Under the pieces are notes generated by a model, which ran no database searches, had not been told where the DNA came from, and worked only from the letters and a program-made list of their open reading frames with translations. The translations under genes were made by a program, and so were the position numbers. Below, piece by piece: positions 4,993 through 23,358 of a stretch of DNA of 64,000 nucleotides. Source of the DNA: Thermoplasmatales archaeon SW_10_69_26. GTDB taxonomy: Archaea > Thermoplasmatota > SW-10-69-26. Where the stretch lies: assembly GCA_003009755.1 (NCBI GenBank), contig PXUB01000017.1, forward strand, positions 1 to 64,000, given 5' to 3'. Each line of letters starts with the position of its first letter. The first letter of the stretch is position 1.

Positions 4993-5215
4993 TCGGGCCC
5001 CCGTCCGCCAGCCGTCCCAACCCCTAGGCTTTTGTAGGACCTAGGGGCCGCTGCCTCGTAGAGGATGATTGCTGCGGGGAGACCCGCGCAGCTGCTTCTC
5101 GCCCGAGGCTCGCATCGCAGCCCAGGCTGTCGCGCGACGAGCGATCGCAATGGGCCACGCAAGCGACAGCCGCCGCTGAGGACGCTGTCGCGATGACGAC
5201 CGGCCTCGGCGCGGC

Positions 5216-6616: not shown

Positions 6617-6663
6617 CGGCGGGCGAGGAAGGGAGGGGCTCTTGGGTGTTGTGCCGGCAGGGG

Positions 6664-6780
6664 GAGGGCGTGGAGGGAGGAGAGCCCAGAGCGGGGGAAC
6701 CCAACCACAGAGGCCCAGAGGTAGAGAGGGTCCCCCAGAGGATGGGAAACCCAGAGGAGGGAAGAGTAGCGGGAGACGGG
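6664..6780 (+). repeat. CAGAG-rich repeat, copy A (purine-rich strand on +)
   Basis: ACCACAGAGGCCCAGAGG core; aligns with the reverse complements of 8360-8455 and 9278-9362. Confidence 0.7.
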
Positions 6781-8471: not shown

Positions 8472-8837
8472 ATGGTGAACCGCCAGCCTCTTGGTCGCAG
8501 GCGCCGTTGCCGGCCCGTAGACGCCGACACCGCTGCGGCCATCGAGGACTTCAACCGGGCGGCCGCCCAGCGCTACGGGGATCGCCTCGACCAGGTGATC
8601 CTGTACGGGTCACACGCTCGGGGTGAGGCCCACGAAGGCTCGGACGTGGACCTGCTCTTGGTGCTCGAGGGCGATGTCCAGCCCGGTCGGGAGATCGACG
8701 CGTTGGCTGACCCGATCGGGGAGATCTTGACCGAGCACGGCGTCCTGTTGAGCGTCCTCCCGGTCTCGGTGGAGGACTACGAGACGCGGGAGAGCCCGTT
8801 GCTCATCAACGCCCGCCGGGACGGGGTTCCCGCATGA
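8472..8837 (+). CDS. Minimal nucleotidyltransferase (MNT antitoxin)
   Basis: LYGSHARGEAHEGSDVDLL motif (GS...DxD). Start is uncertain. Confidence 0.85.
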   Translation: MVNRQPLGRRRRCRPVDADTAAAIEDFNRAAAQRYGDRLDQVILYGSHARGEAHEGSDVDLLLVLEGDVQPGREIDALADPIGEILTEHGVLLSVLPVSVEDYETRESPLLINARRDGVPA

Positions 8838-9207
8838 GCGAGGTCCAGGCCCTGCTCTCGAAGGCTGACGCTACCTCGAGAGCGCCCGGCTGCTCCTCGA
8901 GTCGGGCGATCCGGACTCGTGCGTCTCGCGGGCCTACGCGATGTACTATGCGGCTGAAGCCGCGCTTCTCGAGCAGGGACGGACGTACGACACGCACAAG
9001 GGCCTGATCTCGGGGTTCGGTCAGCACCTCGTCCAGGAAGGCCCGTTCGCTCCGGATCTCGGTCGGGATCTGGCGTGGGCAAGCCAGAAGCGGGACATGG
9101 GGGACTACGATGCTCGCCCGGTCCCCGGCGAGGAGGCCGAGGAGGTCGCCGAGAGGGCGGAGACGTTCGTGGCCGCCATCCGTGAACACCTCGCGAACGA
9201 CGGGTGA
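8834..9207 (+). pseudogene. HEPN domain toxin, frameshifted
   Basis: ATGA overlap with MNT. MSEVQALLSKAD, then a frame change near 8868 to YLESARLLLESGDPDSCVSRAYAMYYAAEA...THKGLISGF...RDMGDY. Confidence 0.8.
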
Positions 9208-9277
9208 CTTCCCTCCGCCCAGCACCGGTTGGAACCCGCCACCCCCGACCTCTCCTCTCGGCCGTCAACTCGATCCG

Positions 9278-9362
9278 TTCCCGCCTCTGTGGGATCCTCT
9301 GCGTCTCTGTGCCTCTGTGGTCGGGTTCGCCGCTCTGCGCCCTCCGCTTCCTCCGCGCCCTC
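9278..9362 (-). repeat. CAGAG-rich repeat, copy C (inverted relative to A)
   Basis: CCTCTGCGTCTCTGTGCCTCTGTGG; reverse complement aligns to 6664-6748 at roughly three-quarters identity by eye. Confidence 0.7.
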
Positions 9363-9576
9363 TAGGCTTCCACGGCGTCGGGCCGGTGCACGTCCCAGAC
9401 CAAGCCGACCTTCTCGAGGGCGTCGATGACCCACTTGCCGGGGTCGACCTGCCACCAGTCGTGGCCGAGGTAGGCCGAGGTGGGGAAGGCGTGGTGGTTG
9501 TTGTGCCAGCCCTCGCCGAAGCCGAGCAGGGCCACGATCGGGTTGTTGCGGGCTTCGTCCTCGGTGTCGTAGGGGG
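9362..9576 (-). pseudogene. Orphan 3' end of an acyl-CoA/fatty acid desaturase
   Basis: Encodes PYDTEDEARNNPIVALLGFGEGWHNNHHAFPTSAYLGHDWWQVDPGKWVIDALEKVGLVWDVHRP, homologous to the C-terminus of 22444-23358; no 5' part. Confidence 0.85.
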
Positions 9577-9640
9577 GTGCCCCCGTCGTCTCGGCTGGGA
9601 GGCGTGAAGATTCTTCAAGCCGTCCGTCGGTTGGCCCACG

Positions 9641-10378
9641 ATGCCCGCACGCCTGGACGAGGTCGACAAGCGGATCCTCTACCACCTCGTTAAGGACGCC
9701 CGCAACACCAGCGCGCCCCAGATCGCCGAGGAGGTCAACGTGAGCTCGGCCACGATCCGGAACCGGATCGACCAGCTCGAGGATGAGGGCATCCTCGAAG
9801 GCTACCATGCCCGGATCGACTACGAGCGCGTGGAGGGCCGGTTGACCAACCTCTTCGTGTGCACCGTTCCCGTCGCCGAGCGCGAGCGCCTGGCCCAGCA
9901 GGTGCTCGACGTGCCCGGCGTCGTCCACGTCCGTGAGCTGATGACCGGCCAAGGGAATCTCCATATCAAAGGGGTCGGGGAGGACATGGGTGACGTCAGC
10001 CGCATCGGGCGCAAGCTGACGAACCTCGGTGTGGAGATCCAGGACGAGCACCTGGTCCAGCGCGAGCACCAGCGCCCCTACCGGTCCTTCGGGCCGGGAA
10101 GGGAGGTGGATCGAAGCGGAATCGCGGACTTCGTGAGCCTGGCTGGGGGGGCCGAGGTCCTCGAGGTGGCGGTGAAGGACGGCGCTCGCCTTGCAGGCCG
10201 GACGCTCAAGGAGGCCAACGCTGAGGGGCTGCTGGATCCCAGCGTCCTCGTGATCGGGATCGAACGCGGTGACGAGACGCTCACCCCGCGAGGCGACACG
10301 CAGGTCCGCGGGGACGACTTGGTCACGATCTTCTCGAGGCGCGGCATCGACGACGACATGCTCGCTGCTTTCGGCTGA
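9641..10378 (+). CDS. Lrp/AsnC family regulator with C-terminal TrkA-C (RCK_C) domain
   Basis: LDEVDKRILYHLVKDARNTSAPQIAEEVNVSSATIRNRIDQLE; C-terminal IERGDETLTPRGDTQVRGDDLVTIF. Confidence 0.9.
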   Translation: MPARLDEVDKRILYHLVKDARNTSAPQIAEEVNVSSATIRNRIDQLEDEGILEGYHARIDYERVEGRLTNLFVCTVPVAERERLAQQVLDVPGVVHVRELMTGQGNLHIKGVGEDMGDVSRIGRKLTNLGVEIQDEHLVQREHQRPYRSFGPGREVDRSGIADFVSLAGGAEVLEVAVKDGARLAGRTLKEANAEGLLDPSVLVIGIERGDETLTPRGDTQVRGDDLVTIFSRRGIDDDMLAAFG

Positions 10379-10386
10379 GGATGGCG

Positions 10387-11289
10387 CTAACTGAGCTGCC
10401 CCTCGTGGACCACGAAGCTCCAACCTGGAGCCTTCCGCCGGACACGCCTCGAGGTCGATCCGTAAACCAAGCGCTTCAACCGGCCCGTCGTAGGCGCCCC
10501 GACGACGAGGCTTCCATCATCTCGCCCCTGCCGAAGGAGCGCCTCGGCGACGTCGTCCTCCTCGAAGACCTCCGCCCGAATATCGACGTCCGCGTCCTGT
10601 AACACTGCGACCTCCTCCCGAAGGCGGGACAGCTCCTCGTCCCATTCCCCGCCGCCGGCCTCCGAGTCGATGACGTGCACCATCGAGGCCCGCAGATCCC
10701 AAGCCTTCCCGAGGACCCCAGCGAACCAGTGAACCGCCTCTCGGTGGGGTCCCCCCGCCAGCCCCGCGGTGACCCCGGAGGGCCGCTCGGAGACCGGAGG
10801 CGGGCTGTAAACCACCGAACGGGACCCAAGGGACGCCATGATCTCCTCGGCGACATCCTCGGGGATCGCGCCACCTGGGCTGGTCGGTTGCTGGCCCGGC
10901 AGCAGGACGAGACGCGCGTCGTGCTCCGCGGCACCCTGGACGACGAGCGAGGACAAACTGTGGCCAAGCCGCACGACTCCGTCGATCTGCTGGGTCCGAC
11001 CCTCGGCCCGATCGACCACCGCCTCGACCGCCTCCCGATGAGGTCCAACGATCTGGGGGTCCGAGTCGTCGAGTGGCGTCCCGTCGGGGACGACCGCAGG
11101 ACGTAGCAGCAACAGCTCGATGTCCAGCGCCTCCGCTATATCTAGCCCCAGCCGCAGATCGACCTCGAAGGACCGCTGTTCCGGGAACACCTGCAGGATC
11201 GGCCCCGCCGCGGGATCCTCGCCGTGGGCCCGAGCGGCATCGAAGAGCCGTTCCCGCAACGGCTCCAGGTCGTTGGCCACCTCGTTCAT
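10387..11289 (-). CDS. Universal stress protein (two USP-like domains)
   Basis: LVVGAPTTGRLKRLVYGSTSRRVRRKAP; GLAGGPH motif. Confidence 0.75.
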   Translation of the reverse strand: MNEVANDLEPLRERLFDAARAHGEDPAAGPILQVFPEQRSFEVDLRLGLDIAEALDIELLLLRPAVVPDGTPLDDSDPQIVGPHREAVEAVVDRAEGRTQQIDGVVRLGHSLSSLVVQGAAEHDARLVLLPGQQPTSPGGAIPEDVAEEIMASLGSRSVVYSPPPVSERPSGVTAGLAGGPHREAVHWFAGVLGKAWDLRASMVHVIDSEAGGGEWDEELSRLREEVAVLQDADVDIRAEVFEEDDVAEALLRQGRDDGSLVVGAPTTGRLKRLVYGSTSRRVRRKAPGWSFVVHEGQLS

Positions 11290-11636
11290 CGACTCACCTT
11301 CTCCGTCACGAAGAAAAGGGGGCTTCTCATTATCCTTCCGTTACTCTGACCCCTCACATTTTAGTGTATCAGTAGTTTCAGGGGGTGTCTGGTGAGAGCT
11401 GGGCTCTGAGGTGACCGCGAACTGACTCTCCCGCTGCCTTGGGGAATTACGCTGACGCTTGCCCTCTACCTCGCACTGCTGGTCTCCACCGGGCACGTCA
11501 GGCGCGTCGCCGGCGACCTCCAGGGACACCCCAGCCAACGCCACCCCACCCACGAGAGGACCACGGGGAGTCGGGTGCCTGAGAAGGAAAGCCCGACTTG
11601 TCGGGGAGACGAACCCGTCCCTGGGAGGTGCCCGCC

Positions 11637-13265
11637 GTGACGCGCTCCTCGAAGCGTCAGGCGGGCGGACGGCTCGCCACCCTGAAGACGGTCATCCGCG
11701 ACGTTGGCGCCCTCCAGATCCTCGTCGGCGCGCTGATGAGCCTACCCCTCCTCGTATCGTTACTCTATCGCGAGTGGTACAGCGCGCTTGCGTTCCTGGT
11801 CGGCGGAGCCCTCGCCTCGCTGATGGGGGCCCTGGCCTACGGGCTTTGCGAGAGCGCGCGCGAACCCACGAAGGCGGACTCGATGACGATCGCCGCCGCG
11901 GGATGGCTGACGACGGCCGTGTTCGGAGCTGTCCCGTTCGTTGTCGCCGCTTACGCGACCCCGCACTCCGTGCTCGCCGGATTCGTTCCGGCGGGCGCCG
12001 ACTACAGTTCGAGCCTGTTGAACTTCCGTGACCCGCTGCACGCGCTCTTCGAGAGCATGAGCGGCTACACGACGACGGGGTTGACGATGAGCGTGCACGA
12101 ACCGTCCGTCGGTCACGGCTTCCTGTGGTATCGATCCCAGATGCAGTGGGTTGGCGGCGCCGGCATGATCGTCCTCTCGCTGGCGATCTTGCGACAGCCC
12201 CACGGCCCCGCGGGCCGGTCGCTGTACCAGTCCGAGGCCCGCAGCACGCGACTTCGGCCCAGCATCGCGAGCACGGCACAGGCGATCTGGAAGATCTATC
12301 TGGGCCTGACGCTGCTCGTGGCCGTCTACCTGACCGGCGTGCTGCTCGTCGCCAACCCAGGCTACGGGCTCGAGAACACGGTCTTCGATGCCCTCAACCA
12401 TGCGATGACGGGCCAGTCCACGGGTGGATTCAGCACCCTGGACGACTCGATCGCCGGCTACGGTTCCTACCTGATCGAGATGCTCCACGTTCCGGCGATG
12501 GTGACGGGCGCCGTCGCGATCCCCGTCTACTACGCGGCCTCCACGAAACGGAGCCTCCGGCCGATCCTCGAGGACCCCCAGGTCCGCCTTCTCGCCGTCA
12601 GCTGCCTGGTCGGCGTCGCCATCCTCTCGTTGTTCCTCACCGGGTTCGTGGGCTTGCCCTACACCGGCGACCTCACCAGCTGGCTGGCGGACGTCCTCGG
12701 CGGCCAAGCCTTCCGAGACGGGGTCTTCCAGTACATCAGCGCAGCGACCACGACCGGGTGGCAGACCTCCGCCATCGGGGATTGGCCCCCCGGCGCGGTC
12801 TTGTTCATCGTGATCGGTGCCATGCTGGCCGGCGGTTCCGCAGGTGCCACCGTCGGCGGCATCAAGCTCAGCCGGATCTACGTCCTGTTTCGCGGGATCG
12901 CGGCGGAGATCACGGATATCTTCCTGCCCGAACACGCGCTCGAGAGCCTTCGGGTCGGCCAGATCCGCCTCTCCGAGGAAGAGGCCAACGTGGAGATCCG
13001 GGCCGCGGCCGTGTTCACGTTCCTCTACCTGATCGTGCTCGCCATCTCCCTGTTCGTGCTCCTCTGGGTCCTTCCCCCGCAGTACTCGTTGGCCGACGCC
13101 ATCTTCGAGGTCGCCACGGCCCAGGGCACCGTCGGCCTATCCGCGGGGATCACTGCCCCCTCGATGCCCACCACTGTCGAGGTCCTCTTCATCGTGCAGA
13201 TGTGGATGGGCCGATTGGAGATCATCCCCGTCCTCGTGTTCGTCCGGAACCTCGCCAGGAGCTGA
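11637..13265 (+). CDS. trkH: Trk potassium uptake membrane subunit
   Basis: FESMSGYTTTGLT, TGQSTGGFS, SAATTTGWQ and TAQGTVGLS pore loops; MWMGRLEI; GGAGGT RBS before GTG 11637. Confidence 0.93.
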   Translation: MTRSSKRQAGGRLATLKTVIRDVGALQILVGALMSLPLLVSLLYREWYSALAFLVGGALASLMGALAYGLCESAREPTKADSMTIAAAGWLTTAVFGAVPFVVAAYATPHSVLAGFVPAGADYSSSLLNFRDPLHALFESMSGYTTTGLTMSVHEPSVGHGFLWYRSQMQWVGGAGMIVLSLAILRQPHGPAGRSLYQSEARSTRLRPSIASTAQAIWKIYLGLTLLVAVYLTGVLLVANPGYGLENTVFDALNHAMTGQSTGGFSTLDDSIAGYGSYLIEMLHVPAMVTGAVAIPVYYAASTKRSLRPILEDPQVRLLAVSCLVGVAILSLFLTGFVGLPYTGDLTSWLADVLGGQAFRDGVFQYISAATTTGWQTSAIGDWPPGAVLFIVIGAMLAGGSAGATVGGIKLSRIYVLFRGIAAEITDIFLPEHALESLRVGQIRLSEEEANVEIRAAAVFTFLYLIVLAISLFVLLWVLPPQYSLADAIFEVATAQGTVGLSAGITAPSMPTTVEVLFIVQMWMGRLEIIPVLVFVRNLARS

Positions 13266-13338
13266 GAACGATGCCGAACGACGATCAAGCCCGCAACACC
13301 GCAAGCGAGAACGGCCAAGCGCATATCAGGGAGACGCC

Positions 13339-14037
13339 ATGTACCTGATCGTGGTCGGGGGTGGCCGAACGGCCAGAGCCATCCTGGAGCTCGCGATCCC
13401 GGACGGACACGACGTGGTCGCGATCGAGAAGGATCCCCAGCTCGCCGAGGAGCTGGAGGTCTACTACGACTGCATGGTGATCAACGCCGATGCGACATCG
13501 GCGGCGATCCTCGAGGAAGCCGGCGTCCGGGAGGCCGACGCGCTCATAGCCACGACCGCCGACGAGTCGGTGAACTTGATGGCCTGTATGTTCGCCAGGA
13601 AGTTCGGGGTGGACACGCTCGTCAGCTCCGTCACCGACCCCGAGCACATCGAGCTGTTCCGGGGGCTCGGCGTCGAGGTGACCGAGAGCCCCCACCGCTT
13701 GAATGGGCGCTACCTGTACCGGTCGGTCGACCGTCCCGCCGTCGAGGGAGTGATGGAGATCGCCGACACGGCGGAGATCCTCGAGATCGAGATCGAGGAG
13801 CAGGCGCCGATCGCGGGCCTCACGATCGACACGGCCAGCAAGAGGGGGTTCCTCACCGACCAATCCGTCGTGATCGCCGTGGTCCGCGACGGCGACCTCC
13901 ACATCCCGCGAGGGGATACCCGTCTGGACGCCGGAGACACGATCTCGCTGCTCAGACGACGCGGCCACTCCGCGGAGGCCGAGGCCGCCTTCACCGCCAA
14001 CGGCGGCACCGACACCGCGTCCGATACGACGAGCTGA
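13339..14037 (+). CDS. trkA: Trk potassium uptake NAD-binding subunit
   Basis: IVVGGGRTA Rossmann motif, DATSAAILEEAGVREAD, IPRGDTRLDAGD. Confidence 0.92.
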   Translation: MYLIVVGGGRTARAILELAIPDGHDVVAIEKDPQLAEELEVYYDCMVINADATSAAILEEAGVREADALIATTADESVNLMACMFARKFGVDTLVSSVTDPEHIELFRGLGVEVTESPHRLNGRYLYRSVDRPAVEGVMEIADTAEILEIEIEEQAPIAGLTIDTASKRGFLTDQSVVIAVVRDGDLHIPRGDTRLDAGDTISLLRRRGHSAEAEAAFTANGGTDTASDTTS

Positions 14038-14370
14038 CCGCTGGAGGTCTACGATCGGATCCAGGCCACCGGCAGCGAGCACTGGCTCGAGCGGGCGCCG
14101 GAGGGCGGCATGTTCGTGTGCGTGAAGTCCCGGCTCTCGGGGCGGATCTTCCGCTAACCGTTCGGCTACTACGACAGCATCGTGCGGCTGCTGCGCTGGG
14201 AGTACAAGCAAGAGCAGCGGGAGAAGCGCTGGGCGACGTTCGAGCGGCTGGGCGAGGACAGCCGCGCGAACCTCAGCGAGGACGCGATCTGCCCCGAGCC
14301 GCTCGACGAAGACGATGCGTGGGGCACCTACACCGGCAAGCCGCGCGTGGCGACGCCGGCGCGGGAGTAG
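14038..14370 (+). pseudogene. Startless gene remnant with in-frame TAA at 14155-14157
   Basis: Coding-like frame LEVYDRIQATGSEHWLERAPEGGMFVCVKSRLSGRIFR*PFGYYDSIVRLLRWEYKQEQREKRW begins immediately after the trkA stop. Confidence 0.5.
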
Positions 14371-14504
14371 GCGTGTGGCAGCGGTCGCGCTGTGGGGCGG
14401 GTGTCCCCGGCTACCCGTCCGCCGCCTACAGCCTTCCTCCGACCCCGGCTATCCGCTATCAAAGGCGGTAACGGTTAACCCCCGCGCTCGCTTCATGGTA
14501 CTCG

Positions 14505-15278
14505 ATGGCGCAGGTGGTGGTTGCGGACTCGAACGCGCTCCGAGCCCTACTGCACGCTTTCCCGGGCGGCGAGGAAGTGTTTCATCCTCTCCAGCTTCGA
14601 GCAGATGACCAGGGACTAACGATCGCTGCGACGCAGAAGGCCGGCTCCTTCATGGCGAAACTCGAAATTGATGGAAGCGGCCTGGAACGTCAGCCCGCGA
14701 CGACAGCGGAGATGAGTCTCCTCCCTGACCAGTTCAAGTCGGTTCTTCAACCAACAAAATCCCAGTCCTTCTCTCAGGGCGACATCCGCGCCACCTTCGA
14801 TCTAGACGGAAACCGGATGCGGGTGAAGCTGGAAAGTGATGAACATCCGAGGGTGATTCGCCGGACAATCACGGCCGCCTCAGGCGGAAAACTACATTTC
14901 GAGAACCTTCCAGGCTTCGATGACGCTGCCCAAGCCCCAGATTTGGACCCGGTCATCCTGAACGAAGCAAGTGATCTCTTCCTTGCCACCGATGATGTGG
15001 ATCGGGTCCACCTCGAGATCTCTGATGGAAGGTTGGAGTTCGAATCACGGCCCCGCCCAGAAGATGCCGAATGCTTCGAGGAGGGATTGACGACAGAGGG
15101 CGAAGGTTCGACCTTGATCCTGCCGAAGTTCCTGGATGACGCCTCCGCGATCGCGAAGAGGAACACGGGCGTCGGAATCGCGTCCAGCGAACTTCGCGTT
15201 ATCGAGCGAGGACCGGTCCGTTTCCGATATAATCTGACGTGCGGTTCAGCGACCTACTGGGTGGGGCCTTCTCTGTAG
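14505..15278 (+). CDS. Divergent PCNA (DNA sliding clamp)-like protein
   Basis: 257 aa. N-terminal LQLRADDQGLTIAATQKAGSFMAKLEIDGSGLE and C-terminal PVRFRYNLTCGSATYWVGPSL match the PCNA pattern (GL.I.A.D...V.M..L.L...F and P....Y......G.....LAP). TTAA box about 27 nt upstream. Confidence 0.7.
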   Translation: MAQVVVADSNALRALLHAFPGGEEVFHPLQLRADDQGLTIAATQKAGSFMAKLEIDGSGLERQPATTAEMSLLPDQFKSVLQPTKSQSFSQGDIRATFDLDGNRMRVKLESDEHPRVIRRTITAASGGKLHFENLPGFDDAAQAPDLDPVILNEASDLFLATDDVDRVHLEISDGRLEFESRPRPEDAECFEEGLTTEGEGSTLILPKFLDDASAIAKRNTGVGIASSELRVIERGPVRFRYNLTCGSATYWVGPSL

Positions 15279-16234
15279 CCGAGAGAGGCTTGGAACGTTT
15301 CGGGGATCTCGATCCCTTCCCCGTTTTCCCCGTGGAGTAGCTCGGGGAGAACCAGTTCGTTGATCCCATCGGGAGGGCCATCCCTGAGGGGGAGCTTATC
15401 CTCGATCCAGGAGATGGATTCGAGCTTCCCGAACCCCTCCACCCGTTCTGACTGGTGTAGATCAACGCCATCCGGCATGACCAGAACCAATGGGTCGAAC
15501 TGAGGGTTCACCACGTATGCCGATGCAAATACGCTCCGCCACTCGAAATACGAGGTCACATCTTCTTCAATCGTTCCAGAAACAGGATACTTTCTCCCGA
15601 AATAGGAGGTCCGGTCTATTTTGCTCGGATGGGGGAAGCAGAACCGAGGGTGACCTTTGGGGCCTCCGACGGTCAAGACCTCGCCATGCTCTTCGAGCTC
15701 GTTCACGTAGTTGAGAAGGCCGGAGTAGCTAATCCGGAAGGAGGCGTCCTTACGGAGTCGGTTGTGGAGCTTCTGGATGTATAGTCCGGGATTCTGCTCC
15801 ACGAACTCGGTGACCTTGGCCATGCGGGCTGTCTTCGTTTCCTGCGTCTGGGACGATATGTACTCTTCAAGGCCAGCCTCGACTTCGGCCCATTCGTCGT
15901 CTCGGGCTACACCTGGCTGGACCCGCTCTTGGAGCAAGCTACGGAGATCTCTGGAGGTCCGGTCGATGAGTTCGAATACCGCCTCGATGTCTCCCTCATC
16001 GATGTTTCGGCCCCGTTCAGTCTCGTTCTGAAGATGTTGAACGAGGCCTATCTCATCCTCTGGCCGCTCGGCTTCCTCAACGAACCGCAGGATGGGTTCC
16101 CAGCGCTCTGGTCCGACTCTCTGATCCTGGAAGGCATGTTTGGCGATAGAGAGGAGATGATGGCGGACGTTGGGAGCGTCCTCGGCGAGTTCGCTCGCCT
16201 TCAGGGGGGCGCGAAGATCATGCACTCTCTTCAC
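15254..16234 (-). CDS. Hypothetical protein with central winged HTH and possible C-terminal OB-like domain
   Basis: RMAKVTEFVEQNPGLYIQKLHNRLRKDASFRISYSGLLNYVNELEEHGEVLTVGG; start overlaps the upstream peptidase stop. Confidence 0.7.
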   Translation of the reverse strand: MKRVHDLRAPLKASELAEDAPNVRHHLLSIAKHAFQDQRVGPERWEPILRFVEEAERPEDEIGLVQHLQNETERGRNIDEGDIEAVFELIDRTSRDLRSLLQERVQPGVARDDEWAEVEAGLEEYISSQTQETKTARMAKVTEFVEQNPGLYIQKLHNRLRKDASFRISYSGLLNYVNELEEHGEVLTVGGPKGHPRFCFPHPSKIDRTSYFGRKYPVSGTIEEDVTSYFEWRSVFASAYVVNPQFDPLVLVMPDGVDLHQSERVEGFGKLESISWIEDKLPLRDGPPDGINELVLPELLHGENGEGIEIPETFQASLGYREGPTQ

Positions 16235-17129
16235 CTAGTATGTCGGCGGCCAGCTGGATGCGCGGCGAATCCGTACTTTCTCCATCTAGTACCCTATAAA
16301 CAACTCGGTGGGGTATTTTAGCGTTGTTGAGAGACTGTTCGAGGCTTTGCCCATCCTCCTTGGCTTTTCGGTATTCTTCATTCTCTCCAGGGGGGAGAGC
16401 TTCTAAGAGAGGTTTCAGGAAGCCTTGCACGTCCTCTGCGAAGTCACCCGACCAGAGACTATGGGCAATCTCGTGTAGCAGGGTTCCTCGAAATGCAAAA
16501 GACGGGTGCTCGGGGAACTTACGCCGAGTCTCATAGCCTTCGTCCGCCTTGAACCGAACGAGGTCTCTCGGGAACGCCGGTCCTCCACAGGAGAGCCCGA
16601 AGAGATCGGCGAGGGCTTCTCCTCGCCGCCTCATCTCGGCCAAGAGGCTCCAGGACTTGTCATAGACAGCCGACTGGCCGTGGGCTACCTCGTGAAAGAG
16701 CAGGCCCGGATATCCGCCGGGCTCCATAGGGTAGTCTACGCTGTCTAGGATGACGAGAGTGATGCTTCCCTCCCCTCGTCGAGGGTAAACCACCGGGCTG
16801 GATCGGGTCCCCGGTACAATCAGGACCTCGATTCTATCCTCAGTGCAAACCTCCTCAGCGGCCTCGATGCAGAGCTCCACGATCCGCTCGTCCGTGTTTA
16901 CGTGGCCATCATCGAGCTGGGAGGCGACCCTTGTCAGGTCCGAGGCTTGCCGCTTGAGAACCTGGACCTTCCTCTCGGGCATCCAGGCCTCAGCGGTTTC
17001 AATCTCTTCGCTGAGGTTTTCGTGCCAGCGGAGCAGATTGTCCAACGAGTAGGATTCAATCCAGCCATGGCCTTCGGCCTTATCCAAGATCGACGGAACG
17101 CGATGGAACCGCTGGGCCGCCTCGTCCAT
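16218..17129 (-). CDS. Zinc metallopeptidase-like protein (HEXXH)
   Basis: LLFHEVAH ... EALADLFG ... HPSFAFR, the gluzincin (M48/M78-like) arrangement; no signal peptide. Confidence 0.75.
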   Translation of the reverse strand: MDEAAQRFHRVPSILDKAEGHGWIESYSLDNLLRWHENLSEEIETAEAWMPERKVQVLKRQASDLTRVASQLDDGHVNTDERIVELCIEAAEEVCTEDRIEVLIVPGTRSSPVVYPRRGEGSITLVILDSVDYPMEPGGYPGLLFHEVAHGQSAVYDKSWSLLAEMRRRGEALADLFGLSCGGPAFPRDLVRFKADEGYETRRKFPEHPSFAFRGTLLHEIAHSLWSGDFAEDVQGFLKPLLEALPPGENEEYRKAKEDGQSLEQSLNNAKIPHRVVYRVLDGESTDSPRIQLAADILGEESA

Positions 17130-17456
17130 TTCCGTCGCCCCATAGGGTCAGGATCTCTCCCCTTACAAGTAGGTCGCTCTCTGCAGGGTGAAACTGGATC
17201 AGTCATGGCTCCGACGATCGTATCGGAGCAGGGCCTATGCTGGGTGAAGTAGACGAACAGGCCATGCCAGCCCGGGCGAAGCGAGGAGGCAGCCCAGGTC
17301 ACGATACGGAGTGATGAAGCAGAGGATAGACCGGTTACGGAAGCCGAGCGTTCAGTCCTTCCTCTCCTATCCGGCCGAGGCGCGTCAATGGGCACTGGTC
17401 GCAGGAGCCCGGGGGGACCGCTACGCGCATACCCCAGGACTCGGTCTACGGGTGGA

Positions 17457-17945
17457 ATGACTACCTTCGATCCCGAACAGATGAGCCGCCTCCGAGCCCG
17501 CCTCGAGGAGCTGCGCGCCTCGGACGAGATGCTGTGGACCGAGCGGGACTTCCAGCTGTTCTGCCGCTGGTTCAAGCGCCACAAGGAGGACATGATCGAC
17601 GGCAAGCTGAGACAGCTGAGGTTCATGGCGCGCCACGAGGATGCGCCGGTCGAGCTGCGGGAGACGAAGGACGAGGCTATCGACACGTTCCTGCGCTACG
17701 TCGTCCACCGCGAGCATGTCGAGGGCAAGACCCGCGCGGCGGTCGGTAACGACCACAAGGCGTTCCGCACGCTGGGCGATCTGGTCGGGATCGACCGCGA
17801 CAAGCTGCCCGTGGTCCCCACCGAACTGGGCGCTGGCCGGTCAAACCTCGCTCTGAACAAGATCAATCTCTTCCTCGGTAAGTCCGTAGAAGAGGTGCAC
17901 GATCTGATTGATCAGATCATCGGTCTTAGAGATCTGGATGTCTAG
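17457..17945 (+). pseudogene. N-terminal fragment of a tyrosine recombinase/integrase-like protein
   Basis: Helical SAM-like segment IDTFLRYVVHREHVEGKTRAAVGNDHKAFRTLGDLVG; no catalytic domain; after about 17840 the frame is antisense to the RM gene. Confidence 0.45.
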
Positions 17946-20900
17946 ACTTTCGACCTTCTCCTGCACCCGGACATATCTGTCGAGGTCATCTCCTACTTGG
18001 TCCAGTAAGGGGAGCCGTAGCTCCTTTAGGCGATCCAACAGGGAGTTCGTCTTAGTAGCACTCTCCCGGAAATCGGCTATTCCGCCACCTTCCTTCACGA
18101 TGGCTGGGACGACCGCTTGAACGAGGGCGTTCTCCCGGTCGTCCAAGTCCCTCAGAGTGAAGGCTTCGAGATATTCCGTTTCGGTATATCCCCACTGGTC
18201 GGTCTCTTGTTCCTCCTCGTCCTCCGGCTTGTAGCGGGCCGCGATTCGAACCCGGAGGACACCGTTCTCCTCTTTGATTTGAACATCTCCCACTCGGAGC
18301 TTGTCGAACTCGTCCGCAGTCGCCTCAAGGATATCTGAATCGTGCGTGGGTTGGAAGAGGCCGATATCCGGGAGCTTCGGCCCCTCAAAGGGTGGAGCGA
18401 AGTAATCCAGGGGTTTGAGTTCATAGCCCTCGCGCTCTTGGCGTAGGTCAGAGATGTGATTGGCGAGGGTTGAGAGAAAGTCGTGGACAACGTCGTCCCT
18501 ATCTGCCTCGAGCTCTTCGCTAACCCGAGCTCTGATCTCCTCGCCGTCTTGGTCCTCTCGACCCTCTAGGTAGGTCTCGTAGAGGGAGCTCAGTTCATCC
18601 GCTGCTTTCTCTCGTTCCGGTTCTGGAGTGGAGAACTCGATTTCTCGGATCGGTAGATCCTGGAAGTATTGCTTTGTACAGGTGATGTACCCTCCGCGGA
18701 ACACGTTGCTGTTCGCCTGAAGGCAGCGGAACAGCAGGTCCGAATTGATGACCGAGAGGATATAGCGGGGGTCGTAATGGTTGGACTCCTCAGAGTCGAA
18801 GGCGATTCCGAATCCACCGCTGGCCATCAGTACGTATTCCGACTGTGGCTTGGGGTAATCGGCGAACGATGGACCGTCGGCGAGCAGAGGAATCAGGATT
18901 TCTGCGCTGTCGTGGATCCTGAGGTTCCGCGGCGCGCTGTAATCGTACCACACAGAGTAGTCTGCGCGTTCCTCGAGTTCATCCCGATTCCTCTCCAAGT
19001 AGCTCCACGTCTCCGGATACCGGGATGTAAATTCCTCCTCCTGCAGGAGTTCATAGTCCTCGTCGTATACCCAGATGAACCGCTTCGAGTCGTCCCCGTC
19101 GAACAGGTAGTTGTCGAAGTCGGTTGAATGAATTGGCTGTCTCAGAGCGTCTGCTTCGAGCTGGAAGCTCTCTTCTACGTCTGATGAGCAAGAGACGAGT
19201 CCCTCACTGGCCTTCTCGACGTGGACTTGGAACACATCATCGCAACCTGAGCTGGTCCCGCGCCCGATGGCTTCTGCGATCTCACTGAGGGGGATCGACT
19301 TCTCCCAGACGGACTCCAACAATGACTCGATCTCTTCGGACTGGAAGGTCCAGGTGGCTGCGGAGAGGGACTCGTTTTCCCATGTGGCCTTGCGCCAATC
19401 AGTCTCCTCATAGGGTAGTCGCTTGACAGTTGAGGGGTCTCCACCATCTGCAAGCTTCCAGTAGGTGAATGGCTTTTCCCGTTCGGAGCCCGACAACAGA
19501 AGGATCGCTGTGTAGGTCGTGGCGGAGTCTGCGAACACCTGGGTTGAGCCGAAGTCTAAGATGCCTGCAACCTGGGAGTTCTGCGCCAGCCTCTCTCGCA
19601 GTGGCTCGCCATAGTCAACACGGAAAATCTTGTTGGGAAGAATGAAGCCAAATCGTCCAGATCCCCGTAGGAGATCTGTGCCTTTCTCCACGAAGATGAC
19701 GTAGATATCGTAGTTTCCTGTTGGTGTCTTGTAGGTCGCCCTATAGTAGTCTCGCTGCTTCTCCGGGATTCGCTGGATCTCTGCGTACGGCGGGTTTCCG
19801 ATGATGGCATCGAACCCTGGATCCTCCTGGCGACTCCCATCCTGCTCGTAGAAGGCAATCGGGAATTCTAGTTGCCAGTGGAAGAAATTCTCCTCTGCCG
19901 CGAGATCTTGTGCTTCCTGGTACCAATCCTTTTCCTGAATGGCAGCCCATGATCCATCCAATAGGGCCTCAGCCATCTGTTGGTAAGCATCGGACGGGAC
20001 CTGGAGCCCATAGGCCTCTGCCGTGTGGACGTTCGCCATTGACCGGAGGTAAGTGTAGAGGTCGTCCTCCCGGACCTCTCGGTAGACGGCCTCCATTTCC
20101 TTGATGTCCTCTATGCTCTCATTCTCGATTGAGAGCAGTTCCTCGAACCGATCCGTGACGTGTTCAAGCGAGCGTTGTCGAGCCTGGCTGAAGGATTGGC
20201 GGAGAGTGAGTTGGCCTCTTGGCGTTGAACCGTTCTCCGTGAGGACTTCCTCAATGTCGCTTCCGATCAGGGAATTCCCGGCCTTTAATCGGTGATCGAG
20301 GAACGCCAGGGGTTGTTCGGCGGCAAGGGTTCGAAGCCAGAGCGAAACCTTTGCGAGTTCAACGGCTAGCGGATTGAGATCGACGCCGTAGATGCAGCGT
20401 TGGGCCACCTGGCGGCGGGCCCAGTAGATGTCATGGCCTTCCTCAACCGTCTCGACCCCTTCGGATCTCGCCTGGGCTTCTCGGGTTCGAATGATCTCGC
20501 GTGCGAGGTAGTCGATGGCATTGGTCAGGAAGTGGCCGCTTCCCATGGCGGGATCGAGGATTCTCAGTTCGAAGATTGAATTCGCGAAATCCTCGGCAAA
20601 GCCCTCGGTGGAGGTCGCAGACTGTAGGACCTGAGACCTCACGTCCTCAACGATGGGACCCAAGGTGTTTTCGATGATGTGTTCGACGATGTATTCGGGA
20701 GTGTAGTACGAGCCTGTGGCCCTGCGGTCCCCCGAGTCCGTTGTGAGATACACTTCGCCCTCGGGGATATCCGGAGTCCTCTGGCCAGGATCAATCGGCT
20801 TGTACTCGCCGTCTTCCACGGCGAGAGGCTCTTCGGCAAAGTTCAGTTTGTACTCCAACAGCCGTTCGTAGATGCTCCCAAGGTGGCGGATGTCGAGCGA

Positions 20901-22157
20901 GGTATAATCAACGAAGACCTTCTGTCCGCCTTCGCCATTCTCTCGCGTCGTCAAGAGTTCGATGACTCGTGCGAGATGAGCATCCCCGATCTTGTGCTCT
21001 ACGAGGAAACGGACCTCTCGACTATCAGCCGGAGATGGATCCGTCCGAAACAGGCCTCCGTTGTATGGGGGGATGTGCAGGTCTTCCTCGGGAATACCCC
21101 GAGCTTGGCTGCCTTGATCGATGAGGGTGAAGAGCCTCTGGAGTCGATGCCAGAGGGTGTCTTCCCATTCATAGTAGCCAGGATCTGGTTTTTGGAGGTC
21201 TTCCGATATTTCCTGCTTCAGTTGGTTGAGGCTGTATTTCTCTCGGTAGATGCGGTTGCGGGTGTCCAGCAGGTCTCGACCTTCACTCTCTGCGTAGAGA
21301 ACGAAGATAAGACGGTAGAGGTAGATGAGGGAGCTATCGTGAATCAGCTCGAGGTCGTCTCTGTCGAGATCGTTCTCAGGATAGGAGAGGAACCCGCGAG
21401 CGAGGAGCTTGATTGCTTCATAGACGTTTTCTTGTAGATCCTCGCCAAGTTCTCTGGCAAAGACTGTGCTCTTATGGTAGACTCGGTCCAGGAAGCTGTT
21501 GCCCGTGGAATCCTCTACGAATGCCGCCTTTCTGAAGAAGAGGTAGAAGTACTTGAACGCCTCAGGGTCTCCTGCTTCGAGAAGAGTTGGTAGATTAACC
21601 TCGTAGAACGAGTCCAGCCGGTGACTGGTCTTGTCGTGGTAGAGCCTCCATTTCCTGCCGTTTGTGAGTATGCCCCAACTCGCTGAGGTTTCTTGGAGAT
21701 AGACGTGTATTTGGTGACCCGGATTCTCGAAATCTCGGCGGTGTTCTCCTTCAGTGTCCAGGGGTCGTCCCCATCGTTTCGCGTCTCCGACGGCAATGGC
21801 ATTGCGGTAGAAGTCGCCGCCCTGATCTCGGCGTTCATGGGCGTCATCTAGTGCTTCTTGACTTTCGAAGAAGGCATAGTCCGGGCGGCGTCGACCTCGA
21901 TAGACGCTTTCTTCTATTTCGAAGGAGAAACCGAGCAAATCGAGAACCGGATTAACGAACCGTTTCCGGAGCTGCAGCTCATTGAAGTTCTCAAGTCGGT
22001 CTTCACTGTCTCTGTACTCTTGAAGTAAATCGTGGAATGCGTCTTCGACATCCTCCTCTGGGACAGCGGACCACGCGTCTGACTCTGGGAGAGTGTCATC
22101 GAGGAAGTGATTCGAGAACAGTTCGCTGTTCTTCCAAGCTGTAAGGGCAGTCTGCAT
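17841..22157 (-). CDS. Type IIG restriction-modification enzyme (Eco57I-like fused REase-m6A MTase-TRD)
   Basis: RPDYAFF...GDAKRW nuclease, GSYYTP, motif I DPAMGSGHF, motif IV NPPY, TaqI_C-like TRD region. Confidence 0.92.
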   Translation of the reverse strand: MQTALTAWKNSELFSNHFLDDTLPESDAWSAVPEEDVEDAFHDLLQEYRDSEDRLENFNELQLRKRFVNPVLDLLGFSFEIEESVYRGRRRPDYAFFESQEALDDAHERRDQGGDFYRNAIAVGDAKRWGRPLDTEGEHRRDFENPGHQIHVYLQETSASWGILTNGRKWRLYHDKTSHRLDSFYEVNLPTLLEAGDPEAFKYFYLFFRKAAFVEDSTGNSFLDRVYHKSTVFARELGEDLQENVYEAIKLLARGFLSYPENDLDRDDLELIHDSSLIYLYRLIFVLYAESEGRDLLDTRNRIYREKYSLNQLKQEISEDLQKPDPGYYEWEDTLWHRLQRLFTLIDQGSQARGIPEEDLHIPPYNGGLFRTDPSPADSREVRFLVEHKIGDAHLARVIELLTTRENGEGGQKVFVDYTSLDIRHLGSIYERLLEYKLNFAEEPLAVEDGEYKPIDPGQRTPDIPEGEVYLTTDSGDRRATGSYYTPEYIVEHIIENTLGPIVEDVRSQVLQSATSTEGFAEDFANSIFELRILDPAMGSGHFLTNAIDYLAREIIRTREAQARSEGVETVEEGHDIYWARRQVAQRCIYGVDLNPLAVELAKVSLWLRTLAAEQPLAFLDHRLKAGNSLIGSDIEEVLTENGSTPRGQLTLRQSFSQARQRSLEHVTDRFEELLSIENESIEDIKEMEAVYREVREDDLYTYLRSMANVHTAEAYGLQVPSDAYQQMAEALLDGSWAAIQEKDWYQEAQDLAAEENFFHWQLEFPIAFYEQDGSRQEDPGFDAIIGNPPYAEIQRIPEKQRDYYRATYKTPTGNYDIYVIFVEKGTDLLRGSGRFGFILPNKIFRVDYGEPLRERLAQNSQVAGILDFGSTQVFADSATTYTAILLLSGSEREKPFTYWKLADGGDPSTVKRLPYEETDWRKATWENESLSAATWTFQSEEIESLLESVWEKSIPLSEIAEAIGRGTSSGCDDVFQVHVEKASEGLVSCSSDVEESFQLEADALRQPIHSTDFDNYLFDGDDSKRFIWVYDEDYELLQEEEFTSRYPETWSYLERNRDELEERADYSVWYDYSAPRNLRIHDSAEILIPLLADGPSFADYPKPQSEYVLMASGGFGIAFDSEESNHYDPRYILSVINSDLLFRCLQANSNVFRGGYITCTKQYFQDLPIREIEFSTPEPEREKAADELSSLYETYLEGREDQDGEEIRARVSEELEADRDDVVHDFLSTLANHISDLRQEREGYELKPLDYFAPPFEGPKLPDIGLFQPTHDSDILEATADEFDKLRVGDVQIKEENGVLRVRIAARYKPEDEEEQETDQWGYTETEYLEAFTLRDLDDRENALVQAVVPAIVKEGGGIADFRESATKTNSLLDRLKELRLPLLDQVGDDLDRYVRVQEKVESLDIQISKTDDLINQIVHLFYGLTEEEIDLVQSEV

Positions 22158-22443
22158 GTTGGGGGGACACCCTGTGTACCGAAGTCGCGCCCGAATGGAC
22201 AGCCCTCCTTCGGCACACTTCTGTTTTGTAGGGGGCCGACGGACTCGAAACGCCGCGCCCGGGATGATATAGGTTCTGGTTCCTACCTGTGGAACCGCCA
22301 AGCGTGAAGCTCGTTCTTCGGGAACCGGGACGAGGCTCCTGGCGAGGATCTTCCCACGCTCGGATCCACGGCAACCGGTGAGGCAGAATAGAAGGATGCC
22401 GCGACACCGCAGCGAGGGGACGAGCCTTCGACGGTTGTCCAGT

Positions 22444-23358
22444 CTAAGAGGCTGCGGTCTCGGCTGCGTCCGCGGCGGCGGTCGCCTCAGGTTCCTCGTC
22501 CTCGTGGGGGCGGTGGACGTTCCAGACGAGCCCCATCTTCTCGAGGATGCGGATCAGGGCGCGGCCGGGGTCCAGCTGCCACCAGGCGTGGCCGATCTCG
22601 GCGGAGGTGGGGTAGGCGTGGTGGTTGTTGTGCCAGCCCTCGCCGAAGCCGAGCAGCGCCACGATCGGGTTGTTGCGGGCTTCGTCCTCGGTGTCGTGCG
22701 GGCGGCGCCCGAACATGTGGGAGAGGCTGTTGACGCTCCAGGTGATGTGGTGGCCGACGAACACGCGCACGAAGCCGCCCCAGACGACACCGAGCCAGGC
22801 ACCCATCAGGGTGCCCTTGACGGCGAACGCGATCAGGCCCGGGATGAGCAGACCGATGGTGGCCATCAGCGCGAAGCGGTCGTCGATCCAGCGGACGATC
22901 GGATCCCCGCGCAGCTCCTCGTAGATCGGGCCCGAGCGGACGAAGCGGTCGCGGAACAGCCAGCCGAGGTGGGCGTGCCAGAAGCCCTCCAACGGGCTGT
23001 GGGGGTCGCCCTCCTCGTCGGCGTGAGCGTGGTGGCGCTTGTGCGTGGCGGCCCAGTCGGCGGCGCCGCCTTGGACGGCCATCGACCCGAAGGCGAGCAG
23101 CGTCGCCTTCACGGCCGGGTGCGCCTCGAAGGCGCCGTGGGTGAGCAGGCGGTGGTAACCCACGCTGATGCTGAGGCCGATCAGGCTCCAGCCGCCGACG
23201 AGCAGGCCCAGCTCAAGCCAGCCGATCCCGTTCCCCCAAAGATAGACGATCGCGTAGACCGTGAGCGCCAGCGGGATGACGACGAACGCGAGAGTGAGCG
23301 CCTTGTGCCACCAAGGATCGTCGTGGAATGGGAGAGGGTCGTCGGACACGTGAGCCAC
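22444..23358 (-). CDS. Acyl-CoA (delta-9-type) fatty acid desaturase
   Basis: Three His boxes HRLLTH, HKRHH and HNNHH; DPHSP motif; TM helices. Confidence 0.93.
   Translation of the reverse strand: MAHVSDDPLPFHDDPWWHKALTLAFVVIPLALTVYAIVYLWGNGIGWLELGLLVGGWSLIGLSISVGYHRLLTHGAFEAHPAVKATLLAFGSMAVQGGAADWAATHKRHHAHADEEGDPHSPLEGFWHAHLGWLFRDRFVRSGPIYEELRGDPIVRWIDDRFALMATIGLLIPGLIAFAVKGTLMGAWLGVVWGGFVRVFVGHHITWSVNSLSHMFGRRPHDTEDEARNNPIVALLGFGEGWHNNHHAYPTSAEIGHAWWQLDPGRALIRILEKMGLVWNVHRPHEDEEPEATAAADAAETAAS

Follow-up and report, generated by a model that had tools for sequence, protein, structure and literature searches.

We analyzed a gene for a PCNA-like protein and the two genes that face it in a 64,000-nt stretch of DNA from Thermoplasmatales archaeon SW_10_69_26 (assembly GCA_003009755.1, contig PXUB01000017.1, positions 1 to 64,000), referred to below as the window. 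The PCNA-like gene (14505..15278, forward strand) started with ATG and encoded protein A, which is 257 amino acids (aa) in length and has a pI of 4.7 and a two-domain clamp fold. Two genes converge on it from the reverse strand: the gene of protein B (15254..16234, 326 aa; family alignment A4) and, preceding it on the same strand, the gene of protein C (16218..17129, 303 aa; family alignment A5). The 3′ end of the PCNA-like gene shared 25 nt (15254–15278) with gene B, and the stop of gene C overlapped the start of gene B by 17 nt. An initial annotation, made from the DNA letters alone, had described the clamp-like gene as a highly divergent PCNA paralogue of lower G+C content in a defence-type island, its end overlapping a convergent pair of peptidase and winged helix-turn-helix (wHTH) genes. 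Both the overlap and the deviating composition were found as described: the gene lies at the left edge of a low-G+C stretch, has a G+C content of 0.584 (0.673 and 0.697 in the flanks) and a third-codon-position G+C content (GC3) of 0.65, compared with 0.89–0.91 for trkH and trkA. Upstream of the gene, the AT-richer stretch GGTAACGGTTAAC (14467–14479, −38 to −26 from the ATG) was the sole TATA-like candidate read by eye; its position would fit a leaderless archaeal promoter. The net charge of protein A was −15, and that of its relatives elsewhere ranged from −11 to +4.

Protein A alone had no family match in Pfam, NCBIfam or PADLOC, and no match to PCNA was obtained for it in Pfam at E ≤ 1; in PHROGs there was a faint match to phrog_947, "processivity factor" (E 0.026). 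A phmmer search of the protein against the PDB gave no match, BLASTP against the host's own PCNA gave an E value of 0.12, and the model calculated by AlphaFold2 (AF2) from the single sequence had a predicted local distance difference test score (pLDDT) of 35. An exhaustive phmmer search of 1.84 billion representative proteins retrieved 11 relatives at E ≤ 0.001, of which one was a fragment with 93% identity (P0001) and ten had 24–29% identity over the matched stretches; a word-indexed protein search gave few matches (1, 3 and 2). Family alignments of 12 rows (A1) and of 20 sequences (A6) were used in further comparisons, seven family members (P0002–P0008) coming from outside the 12 loci described below. 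The canonical PCNAs of the host's class were represented by 18 sequences (A7) with a mean column identity of 74%.

With alignment A1, AF2 produced a model with a pLDDT of 91.8 and a predicted template-modelling score (pTM) of 0.90, displaying the repeated helix–strand pattern of a two-domain clamp. A Foldseek search of the PDB with this model gave no fewer than 500 matches with E values of 0.001 or lower, the best being 2e-15, and the matches listed were all PCNAs or sliding clamps; the query-based template-modelling score (TMq) to the Thermococcus PCNAs 5a6d_A and 3lx1 was 0.80 at 16% identity, and identities to solved PCNAs in the Foldseek alignments were 10–16%. A model of the exact sequence in the ESM Atlas (pTM 0.84) matched 10 of the 10 listed PCNA-type clusters with template-modelling (TM) scores of 0.80–0.83 over 233–241 residues; these clusters count as one source of evidence. 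The A1 profile had 84 matches among PDB sequences at E ≤ 10, and the 60 listed were all PCNA, sliding clamp or Rad9, with the best E values for chains 3aix_A (2.4e-7) and 6qh1_A (1e-6, over residues 1–254) and a value of 4e-4 for the Haloferax PCNA 3hi8. Profile–profile comparison of A6 with A7 in hhalign gave a probability of 98.2% with an E value of 4.3e-14 over 232 columns at 14% identity, and residues 8–257 of protein A were paired with residues 8–245 of the host PCNA, nearly end to end. The PCNA-like length and terminal patterns noted initially are thereby corroborated, and structure prediction, structure search, profile search and profile alignment all returned the clamp fold that had been proposed, so that the PCNA fold of protein A is practically certain. 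An origin of the open reading frame (ORF) by chance is excluded because the fold is confidently predicted and homologues with 18–27% identity lie on contigs with G+C contents of 0.30–0.69. "Highly divergent" proved an apt description: with 14% identity to canonical PCNAs, the family escapes the Pfam models PCNA_N (PF00705) and PCNA_C (PF02747), none of 12 members scoring above threshold and the best value being E 0.22 for PCNA_N with one member.

The divergence extends to positions that are conserved in canonical PCNAs. The alterations pointed out in the initial annotation were paired by hhalign exactly as proposed, AATQKAGSFMAKL with AVDAAHVAMIDL and YWVGPSL with YLLAPRIES, and the canonical invariant motifs LVDEAK, AVDxxHVAM and LLAPRIES were replaced. 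In the hhalign alignment, the interdomain connector appeared a few residues longer than in canonical PCNAs, and it carries a conserved motif of its own, LPxF (F138 is present in at least 90% of the sequences). Among the basic residues of the inner helices, only the Arg/Lys of helix A1 was well conserved.

The host is not the haloarchaeon (Haloferax-type) implied by the initial annotation, which was wrong on this point: the genome (G000) belongs to a 21-species class of Thermoplasmatota. A PCNA_N search found exactly one canonical PCNA in it, on another contig (G000:C1:64618-64878, 57 bits), and this protein and the PCNAs of the other class members form a tight family. The two further genomes in which the PCNA-like gene was detected (G237 and G049, see below) also encoded one canonical PCNA each, elsewhere in the genome, and in these three genomes the PCNA_N model never picked up the PCNA-like gene. 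Thus, as had been suggested, protein A is an extra paralogue and not the only PCNA of its host. Its gene did not have the distribution of a core gene, being sporadic and foreign in GC3, and protein A is probably not a replicative clamp. The host's own PCNA had a pI of 4.4 and a net charge of −25, while class members outside its family ranged from −9 to −14. Together with the two family relatives for which a full-length PCNA was in the set, it spanned pI values of 4.4–4.5 and charges of −20 to −25; elsewhere in the class, the PCNA of L014 was an exception at −24. Sequencing runs that hold the DNA of the window are labelled halite metagenome, and in the probable source run positions 13000–18160 were found on a single contig with 0 differences, the comparison being made to run contigs only. 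The acidic PCNA and the halite labels make the host look halophilic, and the charges of the PCNAs suggest a salt-in lineage inside Thermoplasmatota.

In the 12 loci described here, the PCNA-like gene is found with B and C wherever the contigs reach far enough. A 401-genome sample of the phylum was searched with the PCNA-like profile (E ≤ 1e-12), and the gene was detected in three genomes (G000, G237 and G049); in both G237 and G049 it was followed, convergently, by homologues of B and C. When the B alignment was used as bait instead, species-representative genomes gave 33 pattern matches, of which two, the loci of G237 and G049, were confirmed, and a metagenome collection gave 373 pattern matches with nine confirmed, corresponding to nine further loci. 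The linkage therefore holds from both sides, since two loci were reached via the PCNA-like profile and nine via B. Profile searches of six-frame ORFs in the 12 loci recognized B in every locus, the PCNA-like gene in 11 loci and C in 10 loci, with all three present in nine; the three absences (L035; L031 and L034) each fell at a contig end where the missing gene would lie. The order was the same in 12 of 12 loci as far as the contigs reach: C, then B, facing the PCNA-like gene. B adjoined the PCNA-like gene in all 11 loci with room for it, and there the 3′ ends of the two genes overlapped by 0–34 nt (11 of 11). C and B overlapped by 1–70 nt or were separated by a gap of 2 nt (10 of 10). The 12 loci had no fourth conserved gene in common, either upstream of C or next to the clamp gene, and none of the proteins A, B and C matched a model in Pfam, NCBIfam, PADLOC or PHROGs. 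We are highly confident that the genes form an obligatory three-gene cassette. The possible link to the convergent peptidase–wHTH pair, mentioned in the initial annotation, thus became the strongest result of the analysis, B and C being conserved partners of the clamp gene and not chance neighbours. By eye, the loci fell into about six sequence lineages: the window; L024; L036; L025 with L035; L028; and L029 to L034.

Protein B has a poorly conserved N-terminal third, a highly conserved core (approximately residues 149–203) and a C-terminal domain after it. The core follows the pattern PGxY...SY...L...TxGGPQG..YCFPxP, and 18 columns of A4 (11 sequences) were invariant; in the alignments of the PCNA-like protein and of C, there was no conserved stretch of 7–10 residues. 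B is a probable winged-helix protein, judging from its sequence. The B profile found nothing in the PDB, and a poor Atlas model of B (pTM 0.33) leaned towards wHTH, with TM scores of 0.26–0.34 to archaeal wHTH clusters. In protein C, the residues H146-E147-x-x-H150, E171-x-x-x-D175, E89, H208, P209, R214 and W226 were invariant in A5 (10 sequences), whose members share only 16–27% identity with C of the window. An ExxxD motif some 20 residues after HExxH is the signature of gluzincins; thus, C carries a gluzincin-type HExxH...ExxxD at the level of the motif. Against the PDB, the comparison gave a motif-level alignment to HEMGH...EAIGD of angiotensin-converting enzyme that was not significant (E 0.079). 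An assignment of C to M78 (ImmA/IrrE) was rejected, since comparison of A5 with 12 M78 sequences from the phylum in hhalign gave 9.9% over 38 columns, as was a SprT-like identity (3.6% against 12 phylum sequences, 13 columns around HExxH). Judged by its conserved residues, C is a new family with a zinc-peptidase-like active site. The C-terminal tails of C (...IQLAADILG in the window, ...KLNARYF in L028 and ...SLNAFF in L036) were inspected as candidate clamp-binding peptides; the tails of C and B do not fit a canonical PCNA-interacting protein (PIP) box.

A complex of B, C and the PCNA-like protein (the partner) was predicted with the family's own alignment for each chain. The interface scores (ipSAE, interaction prediction score from aligned errors) were 0.68, 0.44 and 0.42, with a median of 0.44, while all three controls, two with the partner replaced and one with B alone replaced, gave 0.00. 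The runs agreed in at least 69% of contacts, and the pLDDT of the partner was at least 84. The calibration applies only roughly to a prediction with custom alignments and three chains: of 157 solved complexes, 116 attained the mark, as did 2 of 215 mismatches, and at a score of 0.60 or lower it was attained by only 18 of the 157 solved complexes and by both of the passing mismatches. The result modestly raises the odds of a contact between the clamp and B, no more; direct binding of the PCNA-like protein to B may be put at somewhat short of an even chance on this modelling. C itself gave no sign of touching the clamp, because the predicted contact vanished when B was replaced.

The arrangement of C and B brings to mind a switch. 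ImmA/ImmR, IrrE/DdrO, CapP/CapH and BlaR1/BlaI are defined by the translational coupling of a metallopeptidase gene to a (w)HTH gene, and the overlapping or abutting C and B genes in 10 of 10 loci resemble this layout. The cassette could accordingly be a protease–repressor switch guarding a toxic clamp in the style of abortive infection or addiction: B would be the repressor or antitoxin, C a signal-activated metalloprotease destroying B, and the PCNA-like protein a decoy or dominant-negative effector which, once released, would poison the replication of virus and host. An effector with its own control would fit the self-contained cassettes in the housekeeping surroundings of L024 and L036, B and the clamp gene, whose convergent 3′ ends overlap in 11 of 11 loci, could interfere with each other at the antisense or transcriptional level, and the PCNA-like protein made its weak predicted contact only with B in place, as expected of a toxin–antitoxin pair. 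Three features are at odds with such a switch. C stands outside M78, both by hhalign and by the lack of a Pfam match; B, at about 330 aa, has its winged-helix core as its most conserved part across hosts with G+C contents of 0.30–0.69, which is unusual for an operator-specific repressor; and the canonical residues of the PIP pocket are replaced in the PCNA-like protein, so that a PIP-box decoy is not obviously supported. We regard a toxic clamp under such a switch as quite unlikely.

The low-G+C island of the window (approximate borders 14400..22330) is about 8 kb in length, with a G+C content of 0.53–0.61 inside and 0.65–0.73 outside. It contains the PCNA-like gene, B, C and a gene for a type IIG restriction-modification (R-M) or DrmMI-like enzyme (17841..22301, reverse strand, 1486 aa) with an Eco57I-type N6-adenine methyltransferase domain. 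The enzyme matched Eco57I (2.4e-40), N6_Mtase and MmeI_Mtase in Pfam, and DrmMI (4e-106) and REase_MTase_IIG (4e-76) in PADLOC. Its gene lies upstream of C on the same strand at a distance of 710 nt and is a neighbour rather than an established part of the cassette. The "defence-type island" of the initial annotation was thus confirmed in part, by the island and its R-M-type enzyme. The island is flanked by trkH/trkA on one side and by genes for a fatty-acid desaturase and an HxlR regulator on the other. No att-like repeat was found flanking it and no Rfam match in 13800–23000 at E ≤ 0.1; an insertion site could not be read from synteny, as the closest TrkA homologue in the family was 46% identical and thus too distant. 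The gap between C and the enzyme (within 17130–17945) had a G+C content of 0.644, above that of the island genes. An ORF on the opposite strand (17388–17945, forward, 185 aa) overlaps the 3′ end of the enzyme gene by 105 nt; it had no family match and no counterpart beside other cassettes. Two ORFs similar to fatty-acid desaturases (9362–10423 and 22444–23358, both on the reverse strand) flank the trk genes and the island.

A second lineage places the cassette behind defence genes of another kind. In L029 and L033, a row of bacteriophage exclusion (BREX) genes, BrxL-BrxA-BrxB-BrxC-PglX, was followed directly by C, B and the clamp gene, and in L030 and L032 the BrxC-PglX portion was present before the contig end. 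The row in L029 (23–8920) and L033 (1–8843) is similar to BREX type 1 with an unusual gene order, and the cassette occupies the place where pglZ normally follows pglX. PglZ was not found within L029-type contigs as far as they reach, nor in G000. PglX was half-length in L029 and L033 (636–639 aa), ending after the methyltransferase domain. We considered whether C and B supply its missing C-terminal half; this was rejected, as the B and C profiles missed the full-length enzyme of the window, and BLAST linked this enzyme and the L029-type loci by the methyltransferase domains only. In this lineage, pglX ends next to or within the first gene of the cassette, an arrangement suggestive of co-transcription of the cassette with the BREX genes. 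The enzyme of the window shared 24% identity with L029-type PglX (E 6e-18) over the methyltransferase domain only; with this domain in common, two independent lineages thus have a gene for an Eco57I-type methyltransferase immediately upstream of C, on the strand of C. In the window, the PglX/DrmMI-like enzyme was the only BREX match (99 bits against a cut-off of 500), and A, B and C matched no BREX, DISARM or R-M model. Downstream of the cassette, an OLD/GajA gene was present in L032, L033 and L034, and L032 also had Cas4, Cas10 and a RAMP protein, so that Gabija and type III CRISPR genes lie nearby. The OLD/GajA-like gene of L032 (6577–8603) was split into ORFs of 329 and 352 aa directly after the clamp gene; the Cas4, Cas10 (with an HD domain) and RAMP genes (9408–15429) make this a dense defence island.

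Other lineages had different surroundings; context could be seen for all lineages but L028, and L035 likewise offered none. In L024, a gene for tRNA-Arg(CCT) (8852–8928) lies 870 nt upstream of the cassette, and 4754 nt downstream there is a partial copy of the tRNA 3′ end (13642–13695; 70% over 54 nt, with an exact core of 16 nt). The pair brackets a low-G+C stretch (0.58–0.63, about 0.70 around it) with the cassette, and the locus looks like a small tRNA-integrated islet of approximately 4.75 kb, in which no integrase was recognized. In L036, the neighbours were housekeeping genes: BNR/Ig surface proteins, PmbA/TldD and SRP19. L025 carried a tyrosine integrase (5682–6728) and an Orc1/Cdc6-like AAA+ gene (8582–9736); a gene with tetratricopeptide repeats and a Ras/Roc-like small GTPase domain (4589–5569) stood beside the cassette, and an AT-rich spacer of 120 nt between the Orc1/Cdc6 and PCNA-like genes could be an origin.

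The cassette was rare and its composition foreign. The PCNA-like profile detected its gene in 1 of 21 genomes of the host's class; the B profile matched 1 of the 197 genomes searched in the class of G237 (1 of the 13 in its genus) and 1 of the 4 in the class of G049. The G+C contents of the module and the rest of the locus were 0.58 and 0.68, 0.615 and 0.687, and 0.53 and 0.687, which puts the cassette 7–16 points below its surroundings in three high-G+C hosts. The cassette is very probably a mobile accessory element. In a run from another study (X2), which covered 14604–16249, short contigs were 98–99.6% identical over B, while the PCNA-like gene was only 93% identical over part of its length and matched the 93% fragment P0001; from this very small observation, B may change more slowly between close strains than the clamp gene does.

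The same distribution bears on the idea of a host clamp for the DNA-damage checkpoint or repair, similar to 9-1-1 or a specialized PCNA paralogue. For human Rad9, the A1 profile gave a match of about the quality obtained for PCNA (E 1.9e-6 to 6.4e-6, residues 16–174), and heteromeric and specialized clamps are described for Crenarchaeota and eukaryotes (PMC3914693). A resident repair protein would hardly be so sporadic (found in 1 of 21 genomes of its class, 3 of 401 genomes sampled from the phylum and 1 of 13 from one genus), foreign in G+C content and GC3, or placed in islands and tRNA islets; there was a single PCNA-like gene per locus, not three paralogues, and the Rad9 match was no better than that of PCNA. 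We consider a checkpoint or repair clamp very improbable.

A mobile element might also carry the PCNA-like protein as its private replication clamp, a working processivity factor for the DNA polymerase of a plasmid or provirus, with B and C as regulators of the element. Extra PCNA copies on integrated elements and viruses of archaea are documented, an example being PCNA2 of TKV3 in Thermococcus kodakarensis (PMC3914693), and such "shell" PCNAs are the model for this alternative. It agrees with the divergent arrangement of the PCNA-like and Orc1/Cdc6 genes in L025, with a tyrosine integrase 3 kb away, with the tRNA islet of L024 and the low G+C content of the cassette in three high-G+C hosts, and with the intact two-domain fold and some basic residues kept in the inner helices. 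Replication genes, however, occurred in one of six lineages only, no polymerase, MCM or primase was found in the 12 loci, and the islands of the window and L024 hold little beyond the cassette (plus the R-M enzyme in the window). Searches of viral contigs, which reach fairly close relatives only, confirmed no relative: 66 stretches matched B patterns and 0 were confirmed, and 0 were confirmed for the PCNA-like proteins P0002, P0003 and P0008. The element-borne PCNAs known to us are recognizable by the Pfam PCNA models, unlike this family with 0 of 12 members over the threshold. Moreover, the invariant partners are a peptidase-like and a winged-helix protein and not replication proteins. A private clamp of this kind is unlikely.

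We slightly favour a different explanation, in which the clamp fold has been repurposed in a horizontally mobile conflict cassette and does not serve chromosome replication. As between repurposing and a private clamp of the element, the evidence leans to repurposing because replication genes occur in only one of six lineages and two non-replication partners are always present; the replacement of canonical invariant residues and the new LPxF of the interdomain connector speak for it as well. Two lineages, moreover, place the cassette directly behind a defence methyltransferase gene. A defence or conflict role of the cassette has about an even chance. If it is a conflict module, it would most likely be one of antiviral or anti-plasmid defence, otherwise one of element maintenance.

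Several observations weigh against a repurposed clamp in a conflict cassette. The family consensus keeps the C-terminal skeleton of the PCNA motif, Y-x-[LV]-x-P-x-I, and the four ring-lining helices contain 4 Lys and Arg residues in the window protein and 1–8 in the family, compared with 6–8 in canonical PCNAs; given this skeleton and some retained inner-helix basic residues, protein A could still act as an ordinary clamp. The integrase and the divergent Orc1/Cdc6 gene of L025 are as expected of a private replication module. Defence genes flank the cassette in only two of the six lineages (the window and the L029 group), while the neighbours in L024 and L036 are housekeeping genes (PdxS, M28 peptidase, rhomboid, SRP19, PmbA/TldD and BNR surface proteins). 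The sequences of L029–L034 are close, five of the metagenome loci being near relatives of one another, so that the loci amount to about six independent observations rather than 12, and the families are small (20 PCNA-like, 11 B and 10 C sequences). The wHTH matches of B in Pfam were all sub-threshold (FUR in 4 of 11 members, HTH_24 in 4, TFA2_Winged_2 in 3 and HTH_11 in 3; the best FUR match was 6.4e-4), C belongs to no known peptidase family, has no Pfam match and is a putative peptidase by its motif, and the complex prediction was a weak pass, with a verdict of "weak support" and no interface reported.

If the clamp has been repurposed as we favour, the PCNA-like protein would most likely act as a DNA-bound platform or sensor, perhaps at primer–template junctions or DNA ends, which are the sites of clamp loading. 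Its partner would be the winged-helix protein B, by way of which the zinc peptidase C would be either positioned or activated. C could then cleave B, by analogy with the switch logic of ImmA/ImmR or CapP/CapH, or it could cleave a DNA-bound or viral protein, by analogy with the tether logic of SPRTN on PCNA. The boldest version of this mechanism would be a new archaeal immune or conflict system in which a clamp that is loaded on, or recognizes, replicating foreign DNA at primer–template junctions or free ends recruits B and so unleashes the protease C, whose target would be a DNA-bound viral protein, to be destroyed, or B, whose cleavage would set off the response; in some lineages, the cassette would then be the sensing or regulatory arm of BREX or of type IIG R-M. 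We advance this version tentatively, as rather unlikely in itself.

If it were true, it would be the first clamp-based sensor in prokaryotic immunity. PCNA is among the most conserved replication proteins of archaea and eukaryotes, and its fold survives here at about 14% identity. As a defence or addiction module, the cassette would offer a new sensing principle, with the clamp as a pattern receptor or decoy, and a testable case of a core replication fold drawn into genetic conflict; for BREX, whose mechanism is still obscure, the position of the cassette immediately behind pglX offers a concrete lead. Even as no more than an odd clamp private to small integrative elements, the protein would mark how far a PCNA sequence can diverge. 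A search of the full text of the literature turned up no report connecting a PCNA-like gene with BREX, with defence islands or with a pair of metallopeptidase and winged-helix genes. Archaeal genomes look poor in known defence systems according to the abstract of a 2026 survey of archaeal immune systems (PMC12988326), for which the search counted 0 occurrences of "PCNA".

Among known systems, BREX type 1 and type IIG R-M resemble the loci of the window and of L029, L030, L032 and L033 in having an Eco57I-type methyltransferase upstream of C; they differ in that the cassette also occurs without any methyltransferase (L024, L025 and L036). SPRTN and Wss1 are metalloproteases recruited to PCNA for the removal of DNA–protein crosslinks, and the cassette resembles them in the notion of a zinc protease and a clamp acting together on DNA. 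C, in contrast, is not SprT-like, and its presumed third ligand is a Glu (HExxH...ExxxD). With the metalloprotease/(w)HTH switches ImmA/ImmR, IrrE/DdrO, CapP/CapH and BlaR1/BlaI, the cassette has in common an HExxH gene coupled to a probable winged-helix gene. CapP/CapH sit next to CBASS operons, and in one lineage the C–B pair similarly follows pglX, immediately and on the same strand. B, however, is three times the size of the repressors of these switches, and the PCNA-fold partner has no counterpart among them. Archaeal PCNAs (5a6d, 3lx1, 3hi8) are similar to protein A in length, in the two-domain beta-alpha-beta fold and in the C-terminal motif skeleton of the consensus, whereas the PCNA-like family is sporadic, horizontally acquired and always accompanied by B and C. 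The "shell" PCNAs are likewise extra PCNA-fold genes in foreign DNA, by implication dispensable for the host, while being ordinary PCNAs accompanied by replication genes (PMC3914693); the PCNA-like family is far more diverged and its partners differ. These "shell" copies are the closest described kind, from which the present family is set apart by its divergence and its obligatory partners.

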